Assembly (NCBI GenBank): GCA_965226495.1
Contig: OZ245365.1
Coordinates: 4,320,001-4,384,000, forward strand
DNA: 64,000 nucleotides
Source of the DNA: Candidatus Marinacidobacterales bacterium
GTDB taxonomy: Bacteria > Acidobacteriota > Vicinamibacteria > Marinacidobacterales > DATDRI01
Direction: 5' to 3'
A program made the translations under genes and the position numbers. Shown in pieces: positions 1 to 48,239 of this stretch. The first letter of the stretch is position 1, and the number at the start of each line of letters is the position of its first letter. The notes beneath the pieces were generated by a model. That model worked only from the letters and a program-made list of their open reading frames with translations. It had not been told where the DNA came from and ran no database searches.

Positions 1-367
1 CCGCGCGAAGGGGCTAGATGAGGAAGTAGTTCATGAAGCGTATAGAAAACAGTACGTCCTAGCCGGAGATAGTGAGCGCGTGGAGGCCATGGATCGCGGC
101 TACGCCGAGTCGGGCCCTCGAGGCGCCGTGTGCGAAGCAGCCGAAGTGTTGGCAGCACGATCCAAACTCAGGTACGTTTCCTCTACCGACATCGCCTTGA
201 GCTATGTTCACTGCGAGAGGAGCGACGAAGCCTTTTATTGGCTTGAAAAAGCATACGCGGAGCGTGATCCCTTCTTAACCCTTCTTGCCGTTGACCCCGA
301 TTGGGATCCCATTCGCTCCGATCCCCGTTTCCAAAAGTTGGTGCGGTTGATGAACTTCCCCGAGTAA
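1..367 (+). CDS. C-terminal TPR portion of a Ser/Thr kinase-TPR protein (partial, starts upstream of window); tandem paralog of 430..2904
   Basis: Ends ...AFYWLEKAYAERDPFLTLLAVDPDWDPIRSDPRFQKLVRLMNFPE, nearly the same as the C-terminus of 430..2904; DNA aligns with about 2538-2904. Confidence 0.85.
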   Translation, partial: RAKGLDEEVVHEAYRKQYVLAGDSERVEAMDRGYAESGPRGAVCEAAEVLAARSKLRYVSSTDIALSYVHCERSDEAFYWLEKAYAERDPFLTLLAVDPDWDPIRSDPRFQKLVRLMNFPE

Positions 368-429: not shown

Positions 430-2904
430 ATGTCACTCGACCCCGGCACTAAGCTGGGTCCCTATGAAATCCAGGCACCCATCGGCGCGGGCGGCATGGG
501 CGAAGTCTACAAAGCGAAGGACCTCAAGCTCGGCCGGGACGTAGCCATCAAAATCCTGCGCGGGGATCTTGCCGGGGATCCCGAACGCTTGAGGCGCTTC
601 GAGCAAGAGGCCCGCGCGGCTTCATCTCTCAACCACCCGAACATCGTCACCATTCACGACATCCGCCTTCGCAAGGCTTCCGCCTCCGCGCAGCTTCGGC
701 GGGACAAGTCGGCGGGACAAGTCGGCGAAGAAGGCGATATCGACTACATCGTCATGGAGTACGTCGAGGGCACGACACTCCGAGACATGCTTGGCGGAGA
801 GCCGTTGCCGAACAAGAAGCTTCTCCAACTCTCCACGCAGATTGCGGATGGACTTGCCAAAGCGCACTCCGCGGGAATCGTTCACCGGGACCTGAAGCCA
901 GAGAACCTGATGGTTACCAACGACGGGTTCGTCAAGATTCTAGACTTTGGAATCGCCAAGCTAACGCCTCAGCTCTACGAAGCCAGCTCTGAGGAGAGTT
1001 CTTCGTCAAGGGTTGGGGGCACACTGGCGAAGGAGGGCACGACTCCGGGTGTGGTGATGGGAACGGTTGGTTACATGTCTCCAGAACAGGCGAAGGGGCT
1101 GCCATCGGACTATCGCTCCGACCAGTTCGCTCTAGGTACCGTCCTCTACGAGATGGCGGCAGGAAAGCGGGCCTTTCGCCACGACACACAGGGAGAGACG
1201 CAGGTCGCGATCATCCGGGACGAGCCAGAAGCCCTCACCCAACTCAACCCCAACCTTCCTGCGCCATTTCGCTGGATTGTCGAGCGGTGCCTAGCAAAGG
1301 CTCCAGAAGAGCGGTACACGTCGACCCAAGACCTTGCCCGCGAATTACAGAACGTACGAGACCATCTCGGCGAAGTTTCCTCGTCGACAGCCATCGCTAA
1401 ACCTCAACTTGGCCACCGACGGGCGGGCATACTTTCCTTAGCCGCGTTGCCCATCATTGTGCTCGCCCTGGTTGTCGGATTGAACGTCGGCGGCTTGCGG
1501 GAGCGGCTGTTCGGTGGAGCAACTCCAGGACGCATTGAATCCATCGCTGTTCTGCCACTGGAGAATCTCTCAGGCGACCCCGAGCAGGAGTACTTTGCCG
1601 ATGGGATGACCGAAGCGCTAATTGCGGACTTGGCCAAGGTGGGCTCCATCAAGGTGATCTCACGGACCTCGGTGATGCAGTACAAAGGAGTCAAGAAGCC
1701 GCTCCCAGAAATCGCTCGAGAGTTGGGTGTGGATGCGGTTGTCGAAGGGTCGGTCATGCGTTCCGGGGATCGCGTACGGATCACCGCCCAGCTCATCGAT
1801 GCGGCGACCGACCAACATCTCTGGACCGAGAGCTACGAACGGGACCTGCGCGACATCCTCGCCTTGCAAAGTGAGGTGGCACGGGCCATCGCGAAAGAGA
1901 TCAAAATCACGCTGACGCCTCAGGAGGAGGCACTCCTGGCCAGCGCTCGCCCCGTCGACCCCGAGGCCCATGAGGCCTATCTCAGGGGACGGTATTCCTG
2001 GAACAAAGAAGATGTGAAGACAGCCGTCGACTATTTCGAGCGGGCGATCGACCAAGACCCCGACTACGCTATTGCCTACGCGGGACTGGCCGACGCCTAT
2101 GCCATACTTGGGCTTTGGGGAATTACTCCCCCTGCGGAGGCGATACCGAAAGCGCGCGCCGCGGTGCAGAAAGCGCTGGAGCTGGACGATACGCTCGCCG
2201 AAGCGCACACCCCGTTGGGACTCATCAAATTCTATTTCGACTGGGAATGGTCGGCTGCCCAGGCAGAGTTCCGGCGGGCCCTCGAGCTCAACCCGAGCTA
2301 TGCCCTCGCTCATGACTTTTACGCCGTGTATCTGGCTGCGGTGGGGCGACTCGATGAAGCCCTGGCCGAAATAAAGCGCGCGAAGGAGCTCGACCCGCTA
2401 TCCCTTAGGATGGACGTGGCTCTGGCGTTTCAATTCCGGCTCTCACGCCAGTACGACCGATCCATCGAAGAAGCGCAGAAGGTGCTCGAGATGGATCCGA
2501 GCTATTGGCTGGCGCAATTGAACCTCGCGACCACTTACCGCGCGAAGGGGCTAGACGAGGAAATAGTTCTTGAAGCGTATAGAAAACAGCACGTGCTAGC
2601 CGGAGACAGCGAGCGTGTGGAGGCCGTGGATCGCGGCTACGCCGAGTCGGGCCCTCGAGGAGCCTACCTCGAAGTGGCTGAAATGTTGGTAGCACGATCC
2701 AAGCTCAGGTACGTTTCCTCTATCGACACCGCCTTAGCCTATGTTTACTGCGAGAGGAAGGACGAAGCCTTTTTTTGGCTGGAAAAAGCATACGCGGAGG
2801 GGAATCCCTTCTTAGCCCTTCTTGCCGTAGAGACCGATTGGGATCCCATTCGTTCCGACCCCCGCTTTCAAGATTTGGTGCGGCGCATGAACTTCCCCGA
2901 CTAG
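430..2904 (+). CDS. Hanks-type Ser/Thr protein kinase with hydrophobic segment, TolB-N-like domain and TPR repeats
   Basis: [30 protein letters not shown] motifs; SIAVLPLENLSGDPEQEYFADGMTE TolB-N-like motif; TPR-like helices. Confidence 0.95.
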   Translation: MSLDPGTKLGPYEIQAPIGAGGMGEVYKAKDLKLGRDVAIKILRGDLAGDPERLRRFEQEARAASSLNHPNIVTIHDIRLRKASASAQLRRDKSAGQVGEEGDIDYIVMEYVEGTTLRDMLGGEPLPNKKLLQLSTQIADGLAKAHSAGIVHRDLKPENLMVTNDGFVKILDFGIAKLTPQLYEASSEESSSSRVGGTLAKEGTTPGVVMGTVGYMSPEQAKGLPSDYRSDQFALGTVLYEMAAGKRAFRHDTQGETQVAIIRDEPEALTQLNPNLPAPFRWIVERCLAKAPEERYTSTQDLARELQNVRDHLGEVSSSTAIAKPQLGHRRAGILSLAALPIIVLALVVGLNVGGLRERLFGGATPGRIESIAVLPLENLSGDPEQEYFADGMTEALIADLAKVGSIKVISRTSVMQYKGVKKPLPEIARELGVDAVVEGSVMRSGDRVRITAQLIDAATDQHLWTESYERDLRDILALQSEVARAIAKEIKITLTPQEEALLASARPVDPEAHEAYLRGRYSWNKEDVKTAVDYFERAIDQDPDYAIAYAGLADAYAILGLWGITPPAEAIPKARAAVQKALELDDTLAEAHTPLGLIKFYFDWEWSAAQAEFRRALELNPSYALAHDFYAVYLAAVGRLDEALAEIKRAKELDPLSLRMDVALAFQFRLSRQYDRSIEEAQKVLEMDPSYWLAQLNLATTYRAKGLDEEIVLEAYRKQHVLAGDSERVEAVDRGYAESGPRGAYLEVAEMLVARSKLRYVSSIDTALAYVYCERKDEAFFWLEKAYAEGNPFLALLAVETDWDPIRSDPRFQDLVRRMNFPD
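662..721 (+). repeat. Two nested 30-bp palindromic (REP-like) elements inserted in frame in the kinase gene
   Basis: tccgccttcgcaaggct[tccgcctccgcgcagcttcggcgggacaag]tcggcgggacaag; removing the 60 nt restores canonical VTIHDIGEEGDIDYIVME. Confidence 0.8.
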
Positions 2905-4028
2905 CGACGGGGCGCCTTCAGGCTGAACAGTTCGGAAGCCTCTTCAAAACCCTTGGCGTGGCGTTTTCCCACTCGCTTGAACTTAAAGCGTTTTTCAGCC
3001 TTCTCTCGTGTGTCGGAGCAGGCGAGGATAGGACCGGTCTTGTCCGACACAAATTTCTCTATCCGGAAGGCAAGGACCACAGGCTCCCCCACCATGGACA
3101 GGCCCTTCCGGCGTTCACCCCCGAAACTGTCGATCATCACCGGCCCTGTCGCCAGGGCCCAGTCTATTTTCAGAGGGAAATTCTCGATGGACCAGATGCT
3201 GTCGTCATCGGCGATCTCGAGGGCGATTTCGTGAAGGGCTAGGGCCGCATGGCACGCCCGTTCGGCGTGATTCGTCTCCGCGCGCTCATCCTCTTCCCAA
3301 AAGGCGAATATGGCATCACCTTGATATTCCTTCACGGTTCCGCCAAGATCATTCACCGTCTGCTCCAGCCGTGCAAAAACCCGTTCGACGCACTTCTGCA
3401 GTTCCTCCGGAGGAACCTTTTGCACCAGCATCGTGTAATCGCGGATATCGCCCACTAGCGTGGTCACGTAGCTGACCTTGGAGGTACCAACGGTCGCGTT
3501 TGATTCGAAGGCCTGGTCTATCTGGGGGATTTCCTCGGCCAGAAGGACAAGCTCCAGCTCGTCGCTCACCTGGATCGTTTGTCCCACCTTCAGTTGGAAT
3601 TCCAGGTTGGGTACGAGGCGGCGCCCATCAACTCGCGTCCCATTTCGGCTGACGTCGCGGACCACGAAGCTACCGTCTTGATTGCGGGTCACGGAACAAT
3701 GACGTGAGGAAACCGTCGCGTCGTCCACAAGGAGCACACCCGGCGCGAGCACCTGGCCAGACTTGTAACGGCCCACGTCGATTCGTTCGTAGAAGCGAAA
3801 GCGTTGCTCCTGGTCGGTGCCCAGATTGCGCACCAGGTCCGCAGGCGCCGGCCCGATTGTAGCCGGCGGCTCGTAATACACCGGGGCGAGCGAGACCCTT
3901 CCCTCCTCGGGCTGGTCGGATTGGGTCATGCCGGAGACGGCTCCATGGCCTCGCGGTTCCGGGAACGGATCTCGTTGATACTGGGCATCGTGGGCGGTGG
4001 CGGTATCGGAAGAGGGGTTCGCTGTCAA
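2901..4028 (-). CDS. FHA domain + class III adenylate/guanylate cyclase
   Basis: FHA motifs VGR...VSSRHC...VRDVSRNGTRVDG; cyclase motifs VGDIRDYT, KEYQGDAIFAFW, GEPVVLAFRIE. Confidence 0.9.
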   Translation of the reverse strand: MTANPSSDTATAHDAQYQRDPFPEPRGHGAVSGMTQSDQPEEGRVSLAPVYYEPPATIGPAPADLVRNLGTDQEQRFRFYERIDVGRYKSGQVLAPGVLLVDDATVSSRHCSVTRNQDGSFVVRDVSRNGTRVDGRRLVPNLEFQLKVGQTIQVSDELELVLLAEEIPQIDQAFESNATVGTSKVSYVTTLVGDIRDYTMLVQKVPPEELQKCVERVFARLEQTVNDLGGTVKEYQGDAIFAFWEEDERAETNHAERACHAALALHEIALEIADDDSIWSIENFPLKIDWALATGPVMIDSFGGERRKGLSMVGEPVVLAFRIEKFVSDKTGPILACSDTREKAEKRFKFKRVGKRHAKGFEEASELFSLKAPRR

Positions 4029-4096
4029 TCCAGCACTAGCTAAAGGGAATCGGGTGCCGCCTCACCCTGGGAAGGATAGCACATTCTGGAAAGGCC

Positions 4097-4925
4097 TCAC
4101 GGCAGGAAACGTCCCACTTCCGAGTCGAAAATTTCCTCCGCAGGCACGGTTACATTGTAACGTTCGCGAGCGACCTCCAAGATGGAGCCTGCAAACTGCG
4201 GGTGATCTTTCAGGGCGTTCATCAAATCCGCTTTGTCTAGAACGAACAGATCGCAATCGCTCACCGCGCGGACCGATGCGGTGCGTTCTTGAGAAAAAAG
4301 CAGACCGACCTCCCCAAAGAAATCTCCATCGGTCAACTCGCTAATCGCCCTGCCGCTAGAGTCCAACACCTCCGCCCGTCCCCGACTGATGAAGTACATT
4401 TCGTGACCGACCTCGCCCTTTTCGATGACGTACTCACCCGGGCCGTAGGCGACGGGCTTGAGCATCAGGGACAGGGAATTCAGGAAGACGGTGCTACAAG
4501 ATTGAAACAGCGGCACCCCCTGCAGAACATCCCGGTTGATGACCTCCACCCAGCGCCGCCCGTCGTCTTCGATGAGGTCGAAGGCTTCTCGTGGTCCCCA
4601 CGATCCCGCGGGATAGTTGGGAAAGTCTTTCGCTCTTTCCGAGGCCCAGGAATCGAGAATCGGTTGAGCGATTTCCCAAGCCGTCTCGACCAAATCGGTC
4701 CGTGAAAAAAGCGTCGCGTCGCCGATCATGGTGTTGTACAACAGCGTCTCGTAACCCGTGCCCCTCGACGCTTCGAAGGCCTCCCCGTAGTTGAAACGCA
4801 TGTTGACCTTCTGGAGATGCATCGACGGGCCGGGCGTCTTGGCCTGGAAACGAAGCTCGATTCCCTGATCCGGCTGGATATGAAAAATGAGCTGGTTGGC
4901 GTCGAGGTGAGCCACCGGCGTGTCG
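4097..4925 (-). pseudogene. zwf: 5'-truncated glucose-6-phosphate dehydrogenase C-terminus fused to a cyclic-nucleotide-binding domain
   Basis: NQLIFHIQPDQGI...YETLLYNTMIGDATLFSRTD...YPAGSWGP is the G6PD C-terminus; followed by GEVGHEMYFISRG...FFGEVGLL...RTASVRA (CNBD). The NADP-binding N-terminus is absent. Confidence 0.85.
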
Positions 4926-5249
4926 GATAAAGCGGACCCGCGCCTCAACCGACTCCAAACGAAAGCGATGGTGGGAGAGCCAATCTGGGCCGCGAGCAAG
5001 GGCGATCAGGGTGCGATCCATCGACTCATCGTGCGGGGCTTCGATCAGGATGCCGGCGACTACGATAAACGTACCCCGCTTCACTTGGCCGCCGCGGAGG
5101 GCCACGAGCACATCGTCCAGTACTTCATCGACCAAGGCGTCGAGCTCTCTCCGCGCGACCGCTGGGCTGGCACGCCCCTTTGCGACGCCCGCCGCCATGG
5201 GCACGGCCGCGTGGTCCAGCTGTTAGAGAGCCACGGCGCGGTCGAGTAG
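4914..5249 (+). pseudogene. Ankyrin-repeat fragment, resembling the C-terminus of ankyrin-bearing glutaminases
   Basis: DPR...IWAASKGD...DYDKRTPLHLAAAEGH...DRWAGTPLCDARRHGH; no upstream catalytic domain or RBS. Confidence 0.65.
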
Positions 5250-5299
5250 GTCCACTGCGCGGGTTGCATTCCCGACCACGCGCGAGTAATAACCTGGCC

Positions 5300-6406
5300 G
5301 TGCTCCAGTCCGCCTTCTTCCGGAAGTACCTTCTCCCCGGTTTCGTACTTCAATCCATGGTCATCGCCGGTGGTTACGGGACCGGTCGCGAGTTGGTCGA
5401 GTTCTTCTTGAAATTTGGCGCCATCGGCGGGCTCCTTGGCATGTGGCTGGTCTCGGTCGTCATCTGGTGCGCCGTGTGTGCCGTCACGTTCGAGCTGGCG
5501 CGACTAAGCAAGTCATACGACTATCGAACCTTCGCCCGACAGCTCCTCGGTCGTTTCTGGTGGTCCTACGAAGTTTGTTACTTGATCATGATGTTGATCA
5601 TTCTCTCCGTTATTGCGGCCGCGGCCGGGAGCATTGTCCAACAATTGTTCTCCGCTCCCTACTTCGTGGGCGTGGTTCTCATCATGGGGGCGGTGGGCTT
5701 TCTGGTGCTCAAGGGCACATCGCTGGTCGAGCGCGTACTTTCCTTCTGGTCGTTAGTCCTCTACGCCGTCTACATCGTGTTTCTCATCGCGTGCGTTTCC
5801 AAGTTCGGCGACGACATCGCATCCGGCCTCAAGCAAGGGGAGATCAAACCGGGCTGGTTAGGCGGCGGGCTGAAGTATGCCGCCTACAATCTTGGCATGC
5901 TTCCAGTAGTTCTCTTTGCGGTGAGGCACATCGAGCGGCGAAAAGAGGCCTTCATCGCAGGTGTCTTGGCGGGGCCGATCACAATGCTACCTGGGTTCTT
6001 CTTTTATCTCACCATGGTCGGACGCTATCCCGCCGTCGTGTCGGAGACTGTTCCCTCCGTCTTTCTCTTGGAAGAGCTCGGCTCGCGCCTGTTTCTTTTC
6101 GTCTTCCAGATCATGCTCTTGGGTACTCTTGTGGAAACCGGGACCGGTATGATCCACGCCTTCAACGAGCGACTCGCCACAGCCCTCGAGGAGAAAGGCC
6201 GGAAACTGTCGCCCGTATTCCGGCCCGCGGTCGCCGTTTTCCTTCTCTTGTTGGCCAGCGTCGTAGCCCAGGTAGGGCTCGAGAACTTGGTCGCCAAAGG
6301 ATACGGCACGGCGACCTACGGCTTCTGGATCGTGTTCCTTATTCCAGTCTTGACGATCGGGGTCTACAAGATCGCCACCATCAAGGAACCCGTACCCGCG
6401 AAGTAA
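5300..6406 (+). CDS. YkvI-family integral membrane protein (putative permease)
   Basis: SMVIAGGYGTGRELVEFF motif and many hydrophobic segments; GTG start at 5300 chosen. Confidence 0.8.
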   Translation: MLQSAFFRKYLLPGFVLQSMVIAGGYGTGRELVEFFLKFGAIGGLLGMWLVSVVIWCAVCAVTFELARLSKSYDYRTFARQLLGRFWWSYEVCYLIMMLIILSVIAAAAGSIVQQLFSAPYFVGVVLIMGAVGFLVLKGTSLVERVLSFWSLVLYAVYIVFLIACVSKFGDDIASGLKQGEIKPGWLGGGLKYAAYNLGMLPVVLFAVRHIERRKEAFIAGVLAGPITMLPGFFFYLTMVGRYPAVVSETVPSVFLLEELGSRLFLFVFQIMLLGTLVETGTGMIHAFNERLATALEEKGRKLSPVFRPAVAVFLLLLASVVAQVGLENLVAKGYGTATYGFWIVFLIPVLTIGVYKIATIKEPVPAK

Positions 6407-13319: not shown

Positions 13320-13453
13320 GGGAATACTCTCGAGGAACGATAACAAACTTAGTTGTTGACCGGCCAGTGGTTTCTGGTCGGCGGGCCGCCGGGCGGAAGG
13401 AATTGGCTCAGCGAATTGCGGTGCCAAGGGAACCCGCCCGTGGTTTTCGGCTC

Positions 13454-13683
13454 GAGCACAGCCGTGAGCCGATGCGGAGTCGCGTAGTCGATGGAGCATC
13501 AGGCGTGGGGGTGGGGCCCCGCGCCATTAATCAAAGAGCGAGAGCCGCGTCTGGGGGTGGGGCCCCAGGCGACTGATTGATTTCCGCGAGCGCTAATAAC
13601 AGCCTTGAGCCCGAGCGTAGCGCGAGCGGAGCGAGTCGCGAAGCGAGTAGCGAGTGGGGGTGGGGTCCCCGCGAGCGCTGATA
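13454..13683 (+). repeat. Cluster of REP-like GGGGGTGGGG(C/T)CCC elements
   Basis: Three GGGGGTGGGG(C/T)CCC cores near 13506, 13553 and 13656; ccgcgagcgct(a/g)ata tail occurs twice. Confidence 0.75.
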
Positions 13684-14160
13684 CAGATGAGATTTAGTGG
13701 GAAACAGTCGATGCCGGCTCTTGAAACCAACCGAAGCTCTGAAGTGACTGGATTGCCCTTTGACCCAAGGGCAGTTCGGCATCGGGACGGTCCGCCTGTC
13801 CGGCCTGTCCGGCCTGTCCGCCTGTCCCGTTGATGCCGCCAAGGAAAGGGGTACCTCCCACAGCCATCGCTCCACCAGGAACTCCAAGTAAGCCGAGCGT
13901 GCGAGGACTTCTTCTACTTCTAGCCAGTCGCGCTTCGGTATCGCTTGAGCCATCGCTGCACCTCTTGTCACTTCGTCTTTCACCCATAGGCAAAGCAAGA
14001 CATATGCCAGAAGGTGAAAACGGCAGGAAGACAGACTGCAACTCATTGAAAGCAAACGGATTTTAATCCATCTGCAAACGTTAGGTGAGGACCTACGCGA
14101 CGAGCGGGATGTCCCCTTTTTTTTACAGCCAGGGACAAAAAGTTTGCGTATCTTTCAATA

Positions 14161-47195: not shown

Positions 47196-48239
47196 ATGAT
47201 CGAACAAGTTAAGAAGTATTTCGGAACGCTTGAAGGTTTATCCACCGAAGAGCTCGACCGGTCCACCGAGAAGCTGGTCCGTGCGGAGAAAAGAAATGTC
47301 GCGCTCGTCATCGCTCACGTCACCGAGATGTCGAGGCGCAAGGGTTACCTGGACTGTGGGTACAAGAATTTGTTCGACTACTGCACGAGGCGGCTGATCC
47401 TAAGCGAGGGTTCGGTCGCCCGCCGGATTCAGGTAGCCAATGTAGCGCGACGTTTCCCTCAGATACTCGTGGCCCTAGCCGAGAACCGCATGAGCCTCAC
47501 GGTGGCGGGACTCCTCGCGCCCGTTCTCACTGAGAGCAACGTCGAGAAGCTTCTCGAGGATTGCGCTGGAATGACCAGGCGCGAGGTCGAGGAGTACCTG
47601 GTCGCGATCCGGCCAAAGCCCGTCTTCGCGCCCTTGATTCGAAAGATGCCAACCAGGGCGCCCGTCGAGCCGCCGCCAGTTCTGACGGCGCGCCCGACTT
47701 CCAGGGTGTCACCGACGATCCTCGAGCCAGCACGACCTGAGGTGTTCAATTTTCGCTTCTCCGCCGACCGGAAGTTCAGAGAGAAGTTCGAGCGCTTGGC
47801 TGAGGTTCTCGGAGTTCAAAACTCCCAGCAACAGATGGCCGAGATCATGGAGCAGGCCCTGGACATCGCTCTCGACAAGAAAGATTTGAAGAGAAAGCGT
47901 GCACGGCGCCTTCAGAAGGTGTCGAAAAGTAACAAAAAACCTTGCCCGGGCAAGATTTCTGGCAAGTCCCGCTACATTCCCTCAGAGGTCCGCGAGCGCA
48001 TCCAAGATCGCGCCGGCTACCAATGCGAATTCCGGGGTCGGGACGGGACTCGGTGTCGCCAACGAACAGGGCTCGAAATCGAGCACTTGCGAGCCTATGC
48101 CTTGGATGGCAGCCACAATGAGCGGAATCTACGCCTTCACTGTGGCCCCCACAATCGCCTGACGGCGGAGCGGACCTTCGGCGCCGGGTTCATCCAAGGA
48201 AAGATCGATGCTTCCCGGCGGAGAGGCGATCCCTCGTAG
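47196..48239 (+). CDS. HNH endonuclease with DUF222-like N-terminus
   Basis: GYKNLFDYCTRRLILSEGSVARRI; SRYIPSEVR...CEF...C...LEIEH...GSHNERNLRLHCGPHN; RBS GAGGGAG. Confidence 0.85.
   Translation: MIEQVKKYFGTLEGLSTEELDRSTEKLVRAEKRNVALVIAHVTEMSRRKGYLDCGYKNLFDYCTRRLILSEGSVARRIQVANVARRFPQILVALAENRMSLTVAGLLAPVLTESNVEKLLEDCAGMTRREVEEYLVAIRPKPVFAPLIRKMPTRAPVEPPPVLTARPTSRVSPTILEPARPEVFNFRFSADRKFREKFERLAEVLGVQNSQQQMAEIMEQALDIALDKKDLKRKRARRLQKVSKSNKKPCPGKISGKSRYIPSEVRERIQDRAGYQCEFRGRDGTRCRQRTGLEIEHLRAYALDGSHNERNLRLHCGPHNRLTAERTFGAGFIQGKIDASRRRGDPS

Follow-up and report, generated by a model that had tools for sequence, protein, structure and literature searches.

A fused cyclic-nucleotide-binding domain (CNBD) is the allosteric switch of Pat, the cAMP-regulated protein acetyltransferase of mycobacteria. 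In the OdhI/GarA system, an FHA protein binds the enzyme directly.

For the guanylyl cyclase Cya2 of Synechocystis, PMC5995499 describes a single exchange, E488K (structure 6FHT), that switches the substrate preference. For Ma1120, a class III cyclase of Mycobacterium avium, PMC4215837 describes activity with a natural Ala164 at the site of the transition-state Asn and lowered activity of the A164N form; as described there, Ma1120 is a precedent for a working cyclase without the Asn.

The locus considered here lies in the window, that is, the whole analysed stretch of 64,000 nucleotides. It holds the remnant of a gene coding for G6PD fused to a CNBD, next to an intact gene of an FHA domain and a class III cyclase-homology domain (FHA-CHD). 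In intact relatives the two genes probably make up one signalling cassette, running from kinase to cyclase to G6PD. Close relatives have the complete enzyme; the pair therefore looks like a genuine, if lineage-limited, signalling cassette that was broken in this strain.

The remnant of the fusion gene

The features of the locus are collected in Table 1. The first-pass annotation had described a G6PD C-terminus fused in frame to a CNBD in a truncated zwf copy, and the Pfam matches agree with this description. The 300-aa ORF listed for the window at 4097..4999 (-) matched G6PD_C with residues 31-150 (E 2e-35), only over the last 117 of the 296 profile positions, and matched cNMP_binding with residues 183-266 (E 3.3e-20; profile positions 2-89 of 89; 72.3 bits against a cut-off of 27.5). 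Homology with full-length fusions starts at position 4924, and what remains of the fusion gene is its final 275 codons (4097-4924, -). The residues of the relative P0001 that directly precede the break are absent from the remnant, and we found no evidence for translation of the 25 unrelated codons that extend the frame.

Table 1. Features of the locus, with window coordinates
Feature	Position	Strand	Basis
3' end of first tandem Ser/Thr kinase gene (836 aa, begins left of window)	2..367	+	open-ended ORF, paralogous C-terminus
Second Ser/Thr kinase, 824 aa, Pkinase + TolB_N + TPR	430..2904	+	Pfam
FHA-CHD gene, 342 aa from ATG at 3929	2901..3929	-	Pfam; database copy P0121
Spacer, fusion remnant / FHA-CHD	3930..4096	-	sequence; promoter/terminator scan
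Cyclic-nucleotide-binding domain, complete	4202..4453	-	Pfam + alignment with six full-length fusions
G6PD C-terminal domain tail (profile positions 179-295 of 296)	4550..4924	-	Pfam; homology to intact fusions
Deletion/rearrangement breakpoint	4924..4925	.	bridging contigs from runs
25 unrelated codons, frame open to TTG	4925..4999	-	ORF listing, comparison with fusions
Small ankyrin-repeat ORF, 93 aa from ATG at 4968	4968..5249	+	Ank_2 6.4e-13 (Pfam)
Multi-pass membrane protein, 408 aa, first gene of block syntenic with G002	5180..6406	+	G002 comparison

At the breakpoint the fusion gene has lost about 390 codons, those of G6PD_N and of two thirds of G6PD_C. The junction is bridged by contigs of runs from three studies (X2 rec10, 2631-5021; X7 rec18, 2600-5231; X10 rec4, 4895-5021) and therefore is not an assembly error. 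One of these runs, X10, contains the intact allele too: its contig rec3 is identical at 4662-4924 and continues with 255 other letters that read as intact G6PD. Given the 263 identical nt of the intact allele in this run, the deletion is recent, and the remnant is a recent natural deletion allele of the G6PD-CNBD fusion gene.

The remnant is unable to oxidise glucose-6-phosphate. A separate canonical zwf does so in this genome; it codes for 480 aa at C1:891504-892910, 3.4 Mb from the remnant, carries the only G6PD_N of the genome and is 41% identical to the remnant. The proposal that the circuit gates NADPH production is ruled out for this genome, since the catalytic part of the fusion is gone.

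The locus is a rearrangement hot spot. It differs among G000, G001 and G002, an insertion sequence (IS) and an HNH-like gene are present, and synteny with genus relatives is confined to the part right of about 5089/5264. The ankyrin-repeat ORF, for which the ATG was taken as the start rather than the GTG at 4920 of the ORF listing, adjoins the breakpoint and is divergent from the remnant; in G001 only the final 61 codons are left, and they follow an IS. The membrane protein has no Pfam and no NCBIfam match; its counterpart in G002 is 81% identical and is preceded there by a cyclase-FHA gene.

A database search showed that full-length G6PD-CNBD fusions are abundant. P0001, P0253 and P0256 (664-667 aa) are full length and at least 90% identical, and P0001 scored 613 bits with the zwf equivalog model TIGR00871 (cut-off 400.6). 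In relatives at this level of identity, the 664-aa fusion is apparently on the same contigs as FHA-CHD, judged by equal contig sizes: P0250 and P0001 come from contigs of equal size and source (5157 bp, JGI), as do P0247 and P0255 (474,663 bp, ENA). In G002, codons 1-37 of the same fusion-type zwf are kept as a 5' remnant, 314 bp from a second, different cyclase+FHA gene and divergent to it. Most likely, the fusion and FHA-CHD form one co-oriented cassette in the intact relatives.

Gene order around FHA-CHD and around the fusions

The remnant lies upstream of the FHA-CHD gene on the same strand. The gap of 68 bp given in the first-pass annotation runs from the stop at 4097 to a TTG at 4028; up to the ATG start the gap is 167 bp. 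We found no convincing promoter or terminator in the spacer (0 promoter-like sites), while a single weak 5-pair hairpin at 4067-4052 is within chance expectation. On the other side, the stop of the 824-aa kinase gene (2904) overlaps that of the cyclase gene (2901), so the two genes converge, as had been claimed. The kinases are indeed in tandem, because the 836-aa gene (L188:11858-14368; Pkinase E 5.7e-50, TolB_N, TPR) and the 824-aa gene (Pkinase E 7.4e-46, TolB_N 9.5e-7, TPR families) have the same domains. Still, the genome has 96 Pkinase matches, that of the 824-aa kinase among them, which makes the kinase neighbourhood weak evidence.

Ten of the 12 other FHA-CHD loci, all from two families of one phylum and thus kin rather than independent cases, have a small CNBD gene directly upstream on the same strand (4/4 for L184-L187; 6/8 new loci, L189-L194). 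In these ten the order, on one strand, is a geranylgeranyl-reductase-like flavoprotein gene, a gene for a CNBD protein of ~125 aa, and FHA-CHD, with 20-40 bp between the last two where measured (L184-L187). The other two loci are a 506-aa variant (L195) and a partial locus at a contig end (L196). Ser/Thr kinase-TPR genes stand beside the cassette in L186, L187, L193 and L194, an FHA-GAF-PP2C gene in L185, and an MBL-fold hydrolase gene in L184 and L186; for the hydrolase of L186, cNMP phosphodiesterase families gave two weak matches that fell far short of the cut-offs. The conserved unit is therefore a CNBD gene followed by FHA-CHD, and in the clade of this locus the CNBD comes fused to G6PD. 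With the small CNBD partners, this fused domain shares only 27% identity; thus the parallel is one of architecture, not orthology.

The fusion family gave a different picture. The expectation that FHA-cyclase genes recur next to the fusions fails outside the clade: no FHA-cyclase was present at 27 other fusion loci, and FHA-CHD was absent from 15 other fusion-bearing genomes. A cyclase of any kind within about 10 kb was seen at two of the 27 loci (L071 and L080), one without another domain found and one HAMP-linked, neither with FHA. No neighbour family is common to 24 fusion loci, and in a 400-genome sample of the phylum none of the four FHA-CHD genomes was among the six fusion genomes. Most G6PD-CNBD fusions occur without FHA-CHD and must respond to other cyclases. 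The cassette is a trait of the FHA-CHD family rather than of the G6PD-CNBD family. The idea that cyclase and effector are one module is supported for the clade, with its intact fusion and FHA-CHD, and for the order of CNBD and FHA-CHD, but not across the fusion family.

These absences, together with the unrelated neighbourhoods of the fusions and the rearrangements of the locus, could also mean that the two genes are mere neighbours, the fusion sensing a cell-wide cAMP/cGMP pool and FHA-CHD having landed or been co-transferred beside it in one Vicinamibacteria-like clade. We regard this alternative as unlikely, though it is the one to be taken most seriously. With a CNBD gene upstream as the rule in FHA-CHD loci, a CNBD-bearing gene in this slot is hardly expected by chance; moreover, the genome has only three class III cyclase domains, FHA-CHD being one, and a second cyclase+FHA gene flanks the same fusion gene in G002.

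It is rather improbable that the remnant itself is alive, retained as the gene of a separate, expressed CNBD protein that serves FHA-CHD as the small partners do in other Acidobacteriota. It does occupy the slot of the small CNBD genes, the truncated allele is present in runs of several studies, and the 275 codons have no stop or frameshift; yet the deletion is recent, so an open frame is expected anyway. The G6PD tail differs from those of four intact relatives at 0-2 positions over 125 aa. Also in favour of a living remnant, the ten remnant-specific substitutions, mostly conservative, are all in the linker and CNBD part, none in the tail. Against expression stand the lack of a promoter-like site and of an obvious ribosome-binding site, and the G6PD tail, at 125 aa, would hardly fold by itself.

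Residues of the cyclase domain

The FHA-CHD ORF is open up to the TTG (2901..4028, -, 375 aa) and matched FHA (E 9.8e-11) and Guanylate_cyc (E 6.3e-7; 29.6 bits against a cut-off of 21.9) in Pfam. The database copy P0121 is 100% identical over 342 aa and starts at the ATG. Among 8000 candidates scored, 839 were relatives at E<=1e-10; the precomputed Pfam list misses the cyclase domain in most of the relatives. Longer fused forms (600-2000 aa) were not found.

The best solved match was Cya2 (2w01, E 2.9e-13). In this alignment, the specificity residue of FHA-CHD is Glu, as the first-pass annotation had stated, and it aligns with the position at which the engineered adenylate-cyclase variant (6fht) carries Lys. 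The second specificity residue is Ser. The transition-state Asn is replaced by Val, a change overlooked at first reading. Across 32 family members, the Arg, Ser, His and Asn positions of the FHA domain and both metal-binding Asp are invariant, as are the Lys-Glu and Arg of the cyclase domain; Val occupies the Asn site in at least 90% of the members, and catalysis by FHA-CHD is therefore putative.

The suggested preference for cGMP over cAMP fared less clearly. The Glu matches that of Cya2, but the second residue is Ser and the Asn is Val; the RTA motif, which is present in the phosphate cassette of the CNBD (FFGE...ERTASVRA, aligned with six full-length fusions), is not diagnostic. Judged by the Glu, cGMP would be a better guess than cAMP for the product, though only as a lean.

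The same Val, the modest Pfam score with most relatives missed, and a spacing between the small CNBD genes and FHA-CHD that is typical of proteins working together would also suit a catalytically dead scaffold, which reads phospho-threonine and controls the CNBD protein, or the CNBD of G6PD, by direct contact. We consider this doubtful, slightly more so than a living remnant. The invariant metal Asp pair, Arg and specificity Glu are hard to explain without a nucleotide substrate, PMC4215837 describes a natural cyclase that works with Ala in place of the Asn, and MBL-fold hydrolases, one of them weakly phosphodiesterase-like, are near two of the first four loci.

If, as we prefer, fusion and FHA-CHD work as a signalling cassette in the intact relatives, a neighbouring Hanks-type kinase would phosphorylate a target, and the FHA domain would read the phospho-threonine and so switch the cyclase. 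A cyclic nucleotide, perhaps cGMP, would then bind the CNBD at the C-terminus of G6PD and may change its activity and hence the NADPH supply.

Comparison with known systems

Canonical Zwf (TIGR00871) has G6PD_N and G6PD_C, both also present in the intact P0001, which passes the equivalog cut-off; the intact fusions differ by about 150 added residues, a C-terminal CNBD behind a very short linker. With Cya2 (2W01), FHA-CHD has in common the Glu at the base-specifying site. The sensor, however, is FHA instead of CHASE2, Ser stands at the second specificity position, for which PMC4215837 gives Gly in Cya2 as part of an E-G pair, and Val takes the place of Asn in the Asn-Arg pair. Unlike FHA-CHD, Ma1120 has the Lys-Asp pair for ATP, lacks an FHA domain and is not known to have a CNBD partner.

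Pycsar follows the same two-gene logic of a class III-like cyclase adjoining a CNBD-bearing effector, but has killing domains, TIR or transmembrane, that are absent here; the present genes have metabolic partners in a conserved chromosomal setting. An anti-phage pair of this kind, with an infection-triggered cyclase and a CNBD effector, is highly improbable. Matches do exist, of FHA-CHD to PADLOC PycC models (49.7 bits and E 7.2e-14 for the best) and of the CNBDs to the CNBD part of Pycsar effector models, but they stem from the general resemblance among class III cyclases and among CNBDs. A TIR or membrane-disrupting effector is lacking; the cyclase is partnered by a metabolic enzyme, or by a small CNBD encoded behind a flavoprotein gene, in contexts that are conserved and not island-like.

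The CNBDs of this study match the CNBD part of the Pat model (NF058543) with E 2.3e-11 to 2.3e-12, which falls well short of its cut-off. Compared to Pat, the fused enzyme is G6PD, the CNBD is C-terminal, and the regulation is putative. Finally, FHA-CHD has weak, FHA-level matches to OdhI (E 3.9e-4), and in OdhI/GarA, too, a small FHA protein stands next to Hanks kinases and the proposed output is an enzyme of central carbon metabolism; in the circuit proposed here, a cyclase domain and a CNBD would be interposed between FHA domain and enzyme.

A truncated fusion gene at an unstable locus

The first-pass annotation had described a G6PD C-terminus joined to a cyclic-nucleotide-binding domain (CNBD), a gene with an FHA domain and a class III cyclase-homology domain (FHA-CHD) behind it and convergent Ser/Thr kinases, and had called the zwf copy truncated. 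All of these elements were recovered in the ORF and Pfam analyses (see the table), and so was the truncation. The fusion ORF has no G6PD_N match in Pfam, a domain present in the relatives P0001-P0120, and its G6PD_C match covers profile positions 179-295 of 296 only, so that the complete G6PD_C domain is not there. The tail is followed by a complete cNMP_binding domain (PF00027; 72.3 bits against a cut-off of 27.5, profile positions 2-89 of 89), whose phosphate cassette FFGE...RTASVRA aligned with those of six intact fusions. Judged from its sequence, the remnant is predicted to keep both the full beta-barrel and the phosphate-binding cassette (Gly-Glu ... Arg-Thr/Ser-Ala).

The single G6PD_N of the genome (C1:891504-892037) lies within an intact, canonical 480-aa zwf at C1:891504-892910, and the only other G6PD_C match in the genome is the remnant. 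We observed 41% identity between the remnant and this canonical zwf, compared to 94% identity to P0001, a 664-aa fusion of a close relative with G6PD_N, G6PD_C and CNBD. Homology to P0001 begins at window position 4924, with 25 unrelated codons upstream; a small ankyrin ORF stands upstream of the break on the opposite strand. The zwf copy in the window is a recent deletion allele, and the metabolic output of the circuit proposed in the first-pass annotation is deleted in this genome.

The remnant is separated by 68 bases from the FHA-CHD ORF (to 4028), while the database copy of the FHA-CHD protein (P0121, 342 aa) starts with the ATG at 3929. The FHA-CHD stop overlaps the stop of the convergent kinase, which is preceded by a second, paralogous kinase of 836 aa just left of the window. 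A promoter and terminator scan of 2700-5400 gave nothing above chance.

Coordinates of the genes in the window, of the three-gene rows with FHA-CHD and of other cyclase/CNBD neighbourhoods
Feature	Coordinates	Strand or orientation	Details
G6PD_C tail + CNBD ORF	4097..4999	(-)	300 aa; G6PD_C E 2e-35, cNMP_binding E 3.3e-20
FHA-CHD ORF	2901..4028	(-)	FHA E 9.8e-11; weak cyclase-domain match, 29.6 bits, cut-off 21.9
Ser/Thr kinase	430..2904	convergent with FHA-CHD	Pkinase + TolB_N + TPR
Three-gene row	L184:1132-3832		
Three-gene row	L185:7592-10300		
Three-gene row	L186:9424-12305	(-)	
Three-gene row	L187:6216-8787		
Three-gene rows	L189-L194		
Cyclase/CNBD neighbourhood	G028:C10:1299386-1311415		
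Cyclase/CNBD neighbourhood	G020:C192:26943-36283		
Cyclase/CNBD neighbourhood	G032:C29:5975-15218		
Cyclase/CNBD neighbourhood	G022:C2:3799911-3808923		

An assembly artefact at 4924/4925 was ruled out by Logan contigs that bridge the junction in sequencing runs of three studies (X2, 2631-5021; X7, 2600-5231; X10, 4895-5021), one of which may be the source sample. A second contig of X10 was identical over 4662-4924 and then continued for 255 further letters, the first 30 of which encode on the minus strand the residues preceding the break in P0001. Since X10 contains both the junction contig and the contig with the intact continuation, the two alleles, intact and truncated, occur side by side in nature. 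Neither a stop nor a frameshift interrupts the remnant; its 10 lineage-specific substitutions all fall in the linker and CNBD part, eight of them within 34 residues. A metatranscriptome run (X20) contained a 213-nt contig inside FHA-CHD (3102-3314) and none over the remnant, where contigs from RNA libraries show neither transcription nor silence.

With two genus relatives, G001 and G002, synteny was confined to the part right of about 5089/5264. G002 retains codons 1-37 of the fusion-type zwf (alignable to P0001 over 22 residues at 86%, and to the canonical zwf over 9), the rest being directly replaced by a 410-aa HNH-like gene (L168:12943-14172). At the same spot, an IS is present in G001, and the ankyrin ORF is reduced to its last 61 codons. 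Because the fusion-type zwf is broken differently in the genome of the window and in G002, it was damaged independently at least twice. P0255, a 504-aa member of the fusion cluster from a 474,663-bp ENA contig, ends a few residues past the G6PD domain, without the CNBD; it represents a third kind of damage, or else its assembly contains a frameshift.

The three genus members show three different arrangements at the fusion/ankyrin spot. A 366-aa transposase-like ORF precedes the ankyrin-gene remnant on G001:C22 (L167:157-1254), with no Pfam match at E 1e-5. A paralogue of the HNH-motif gene of G002 lies in the window (47211-48233; 30% identity), and the gene may represent a mobile gene family. 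A 408-aa multi-pass membrane protein without a Pfam or NCBIfam family (window 5180-6406) has a counterpart of 81% identity in G002, while in G001 it is absent from that place. A dispersed intergenic repeat at 13380-13700, with GGGGGTGGGGCCCC-like cores, had 71 blastn matches in its own genome and many in relatives; tRNA and Rfam scans found neither a tRNA nor an Rfam match in it.

The fusion family and its neighbourhoods

Full-length proteins with G6PD and cNMP_binding domains, which the first-pass annotation proposed to search for, were found as a large family in several phyla. All three Pfam domains were present in each of the best 120 longer relatives listed (525-684 aa), and P0001, a complete member, exceeds the cut-off of the zwf equivalog TIGR00871. 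The fusion was present in 6 of 400 sampled Acidobacteriota genomes. The records of 21 fusion loci in species-representative genomes name Acidobacteriota, Thermoanaerobaculia, Gemmatales/Gemmataceae, Tautonia sociabilis, Planctomycetaceae, Pseudomonadales, Methylophilaceae, Thiogranum and Rokubacteria. A metagenome scan with P0001 gave 80 loci, of which only three were fusions (L082, L083, L101); the contig of P0001 itself was not among them. No publication on G6PD-CNBD fusions turned up in a full-text literature search judged from listings and abstracts.

The expected recurrence of FHA-cyclase genes beside the fusions was not borne out: an FHA-cyclase was found in 0 of 27 fusion loci, and FHA-CHD in 0 of 15 fusion-bearing genomes outside the clade of the window. 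The 27 loci (L057, L058, L060, L061-L083, L101; 404,770 bp) extended up to 10 kb per side where the contig allowed, and were searched with an HMM of 13 cyclase sequences, which recovered the controls in the window, G002 and G004. Only two loci had a cyclase near the fusion (L071 and L080), in both cases without FHA in Pfam; the L080 cyclase has HAMP and the L071 cyclase no other domain. Whole-genome searches of five fusion genomes gave 2-7 cyclase matches each, some of them fragments, and none near the fusion. Hanks kinases were near the fusion in two of the 27 loci, and an all-against-all comparison of neighbours for 24 of them found no common family except in three closely related Methylophilaceae. 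We also observed a 671-aa cyclase gene about 3.6 kb from a second, plain zwf in G055 (G055:C35:235621-240106), a genome whose fusion lies elsewhere.

G002 has a different cyclase+FHA gene (G002:C1:2044601-2045629, L168:14602-15630; Guanylate_cyc E 2.7e-13, FHA E 3.2e-12), with the cyclase first and the FHA domain last. The gene diverges from the 5' remnant (37 codons) of the fusion zwf, 314 bp away. No zwf remnant, membrane-protein gene or CNBD was found within 10 kb of its orthologue in G004 (47%); the link of this gene to the fusion is therefore seen once only, and the G002 arrangement is one further hint of a linkage between fusions and FHA-cyclases. In the G002 gene, inspection by eye puts Asp at the specificity position, with Tyr in the place of the Asn.

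FHA-CHD and its CNBD partner

The FHA-CHD family is tight: it had 839 matches at E<=1e-10 among 8000 candidates scored, and the top 120 relatives showed 48-62% identity at about 330-345 aa. Its members also include proteins from outside Acidobacteriota, for example from Eisenbacteria and Planctomycetota. A search for longer fused forms of 600-2000 aa found none at E<=1e-30, which is weak evidence. FHA-CHD occurred in four genomes of the phylum sample and in eight more among the relatives of one of those four, compared to 0 of 351 in the Planctomycetota sample with six candidates per genome scored. The full-text literature search found no paper on bacterial FHA-cyclases.

For 10 of the 12 FHA-CHD loci, we found the same row of genes on one strand: a geranylgeranyl-reductase-like flavoprotein (about 450 aa; TIGR02032 E 1.9e-11, below cut-off), then a CNBD-only protein of 122-130 aa, then FHA-CHD, with a gap of 20-40 bp between the last two as measured in L184-L187. 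The two loci that depart from this row are L195, with a variant of 506 aa, and L196, where the gene is partial and abuts the end of a contig. All of these loci belong to a single phylum (two families, five genera), and being related they do not count as independent trials. Kinase-TPR genes lie beside the cassette in L186, L187, L193 and L194, an FHA-GAF-PP2C phosphatase in L185, and an MBL-fold hydrolase in L184 and L186, the latter matching PDEase_II (E 1.3e-12) and NF041851 (E 4.4e-13) far below both cut-offs. The genome of the window holds 96 kinase matches in 6.3 Mb, many of them in tandem and many with TolB_N/TPR tails, and only three cyclase domains. Therefore, adjacency to a kinase is weak evidence, while adjacency of cyclase and CNBD is not.

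In the window, too, a CNBD-bearing gene (CNBD end at 4100) stands directly upstream of FHA-CHD (start at 4028 or 3929) on the same strand. In this clade, it is the CNBD end of the G6PD fusion that occupies the slot before FHA-CHD, and this CNBD is only 27% identical to the small CNBD partners. In each of two fusion/FHA-CHD pairs, both members come from contigs of equal size and source (P0001 and P0250, 5157 bp, JGI; P0255 and P0247, 474,663 bp, ENA), and from this agreement we take the paired proteins of these close relatives to be encoded on one contig.

Another cyclase-CNBD neighbourhood may recur in the order. Four order-level relatives carry a class III cyclase at a distance of 8-11 kb from a CNBD match that falls in an open frame of about 1100 aa; the G028 copy and the G038 homologue have Glu at the specificity position. 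Counts over the 40 order-level relatives include an unpublished genome, G007, on which no result depends.

The FHA domain of the window gene (PF00498) has G53, R54, S74, H77, N96 and G97, all invariant among 32 aligned members; these make up the Gly-Arg, Ser-x-x-His and Asn-Gly motifs, commonly associated in FHA domains with the binding of phospho-Thr. T146 of P0121, in the linker between FHA and cyclase, is likewise invariant, and a role as a phospho-site would be speculation.

On the cyclase side, the metal Asp residues of 'GDIRDY' and 'QGDA' (PF00211) are invariant in 32 of 32 members and align with those of Cya2, the nearest solved relative (2w01, E 2.9e-13); Lys-Glu and Arg are also invariant in the 32. 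Base specificity in class III cyclases follows a residue pair, Lys-Asp/Thr for ATP and Glu-Cys/Gly/Ser for GTP. The Glu at the specificity position, which the first-pass annotation had pointed out, is invariant and aligns with the Cya2 Glu, in whose place 6fht has Lys; Ser stands at the second position, and the pair leans to GTP. Cya2 has an E-G pair (PMC4215837) and is turned into an adenylate cyclase by the single exchange E488K (PMC5995499). The usual transition-state pair is Asn-Arg, as given in PMC4215837; in FHA-CHD this pair is not intact, with Arg kept and Val at the Asn site ('GEPVVLAFR') in at least 90% of the 32 members. Since Ma1120 is described there as active with Ala at this site, Val need not abolish activity. 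Going by these residues, the putative cyclase would more likely make cGMP than cAMP, which is a lean only.

A possible route from phosphorylation to redox metabolism

We consider it possible, though short of probable, that FHA-CHD and the CNBD gene in front of it form an undescribed conserved Acidobacteriota cassette leading from Ser/Thr phosphorylation through a cyclic nucleotide to a redox enzyme. Phosphorylation would act on the synthesis of the nucleotide, probably cGMP, by the Asn-less class III cyclase of FHA-CHD. The nucleotide would then act on the redox enzyme, in most lineages the geranylgeranyl-reductase-like flavoprotein through the small CNBD protein, and in the Vicinamibacteria-like clade of the window on G6PD itself through the fused CNBD. 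If true, the entry reaction of the oxidative pentose-phosphate pathway would itself carry a second-messenger switch. The circuit of the first-pass annotation, in which phosphorylation controls a cyclic nucleotide that gates NADPH production, can reasonably be taken as a model for those members of this clade that are intact, and in a broader sense for FHA-CHD with a CNBD partner; it does not extend to G6PD-CNBD fusions in general.

G6PD sets the NADPH supply. Known control of the bacterial enzyme runs via transcription, redox partners or metabolites; it is not known to respond to a cyclic nucleotide that binds the enzyme itself. Given the size of the fusion family and its presence in several phyla, a new way of controlling the pentose-phosphate pathway could come to light in a simple enzyme assay. 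Taken for this genome by itself, the result is a modest one: what is left of the effector is a deletion remnant, and the genome has a canonical zwf. What the window adds is the cyclase side: the pair of a CNBD followed by FHA-CHD is a concrete, testable candidate for signal maker and switch, and the coexisting natural intact and truncated alleles offer a ready-made comparison.

A reading of the locus as a Pycsar system was ruled out, since no TIR or membrane-disrupting effector stands beside the cyclase and the PADLOC Pycsar matches were confined to the cyclase and CNBD parts. The Pycsar effector joins a CNBD to a TIR or membrane-disrupting domain, whereas the partners here are G6PD or a 125-aa CNBD-only protein.
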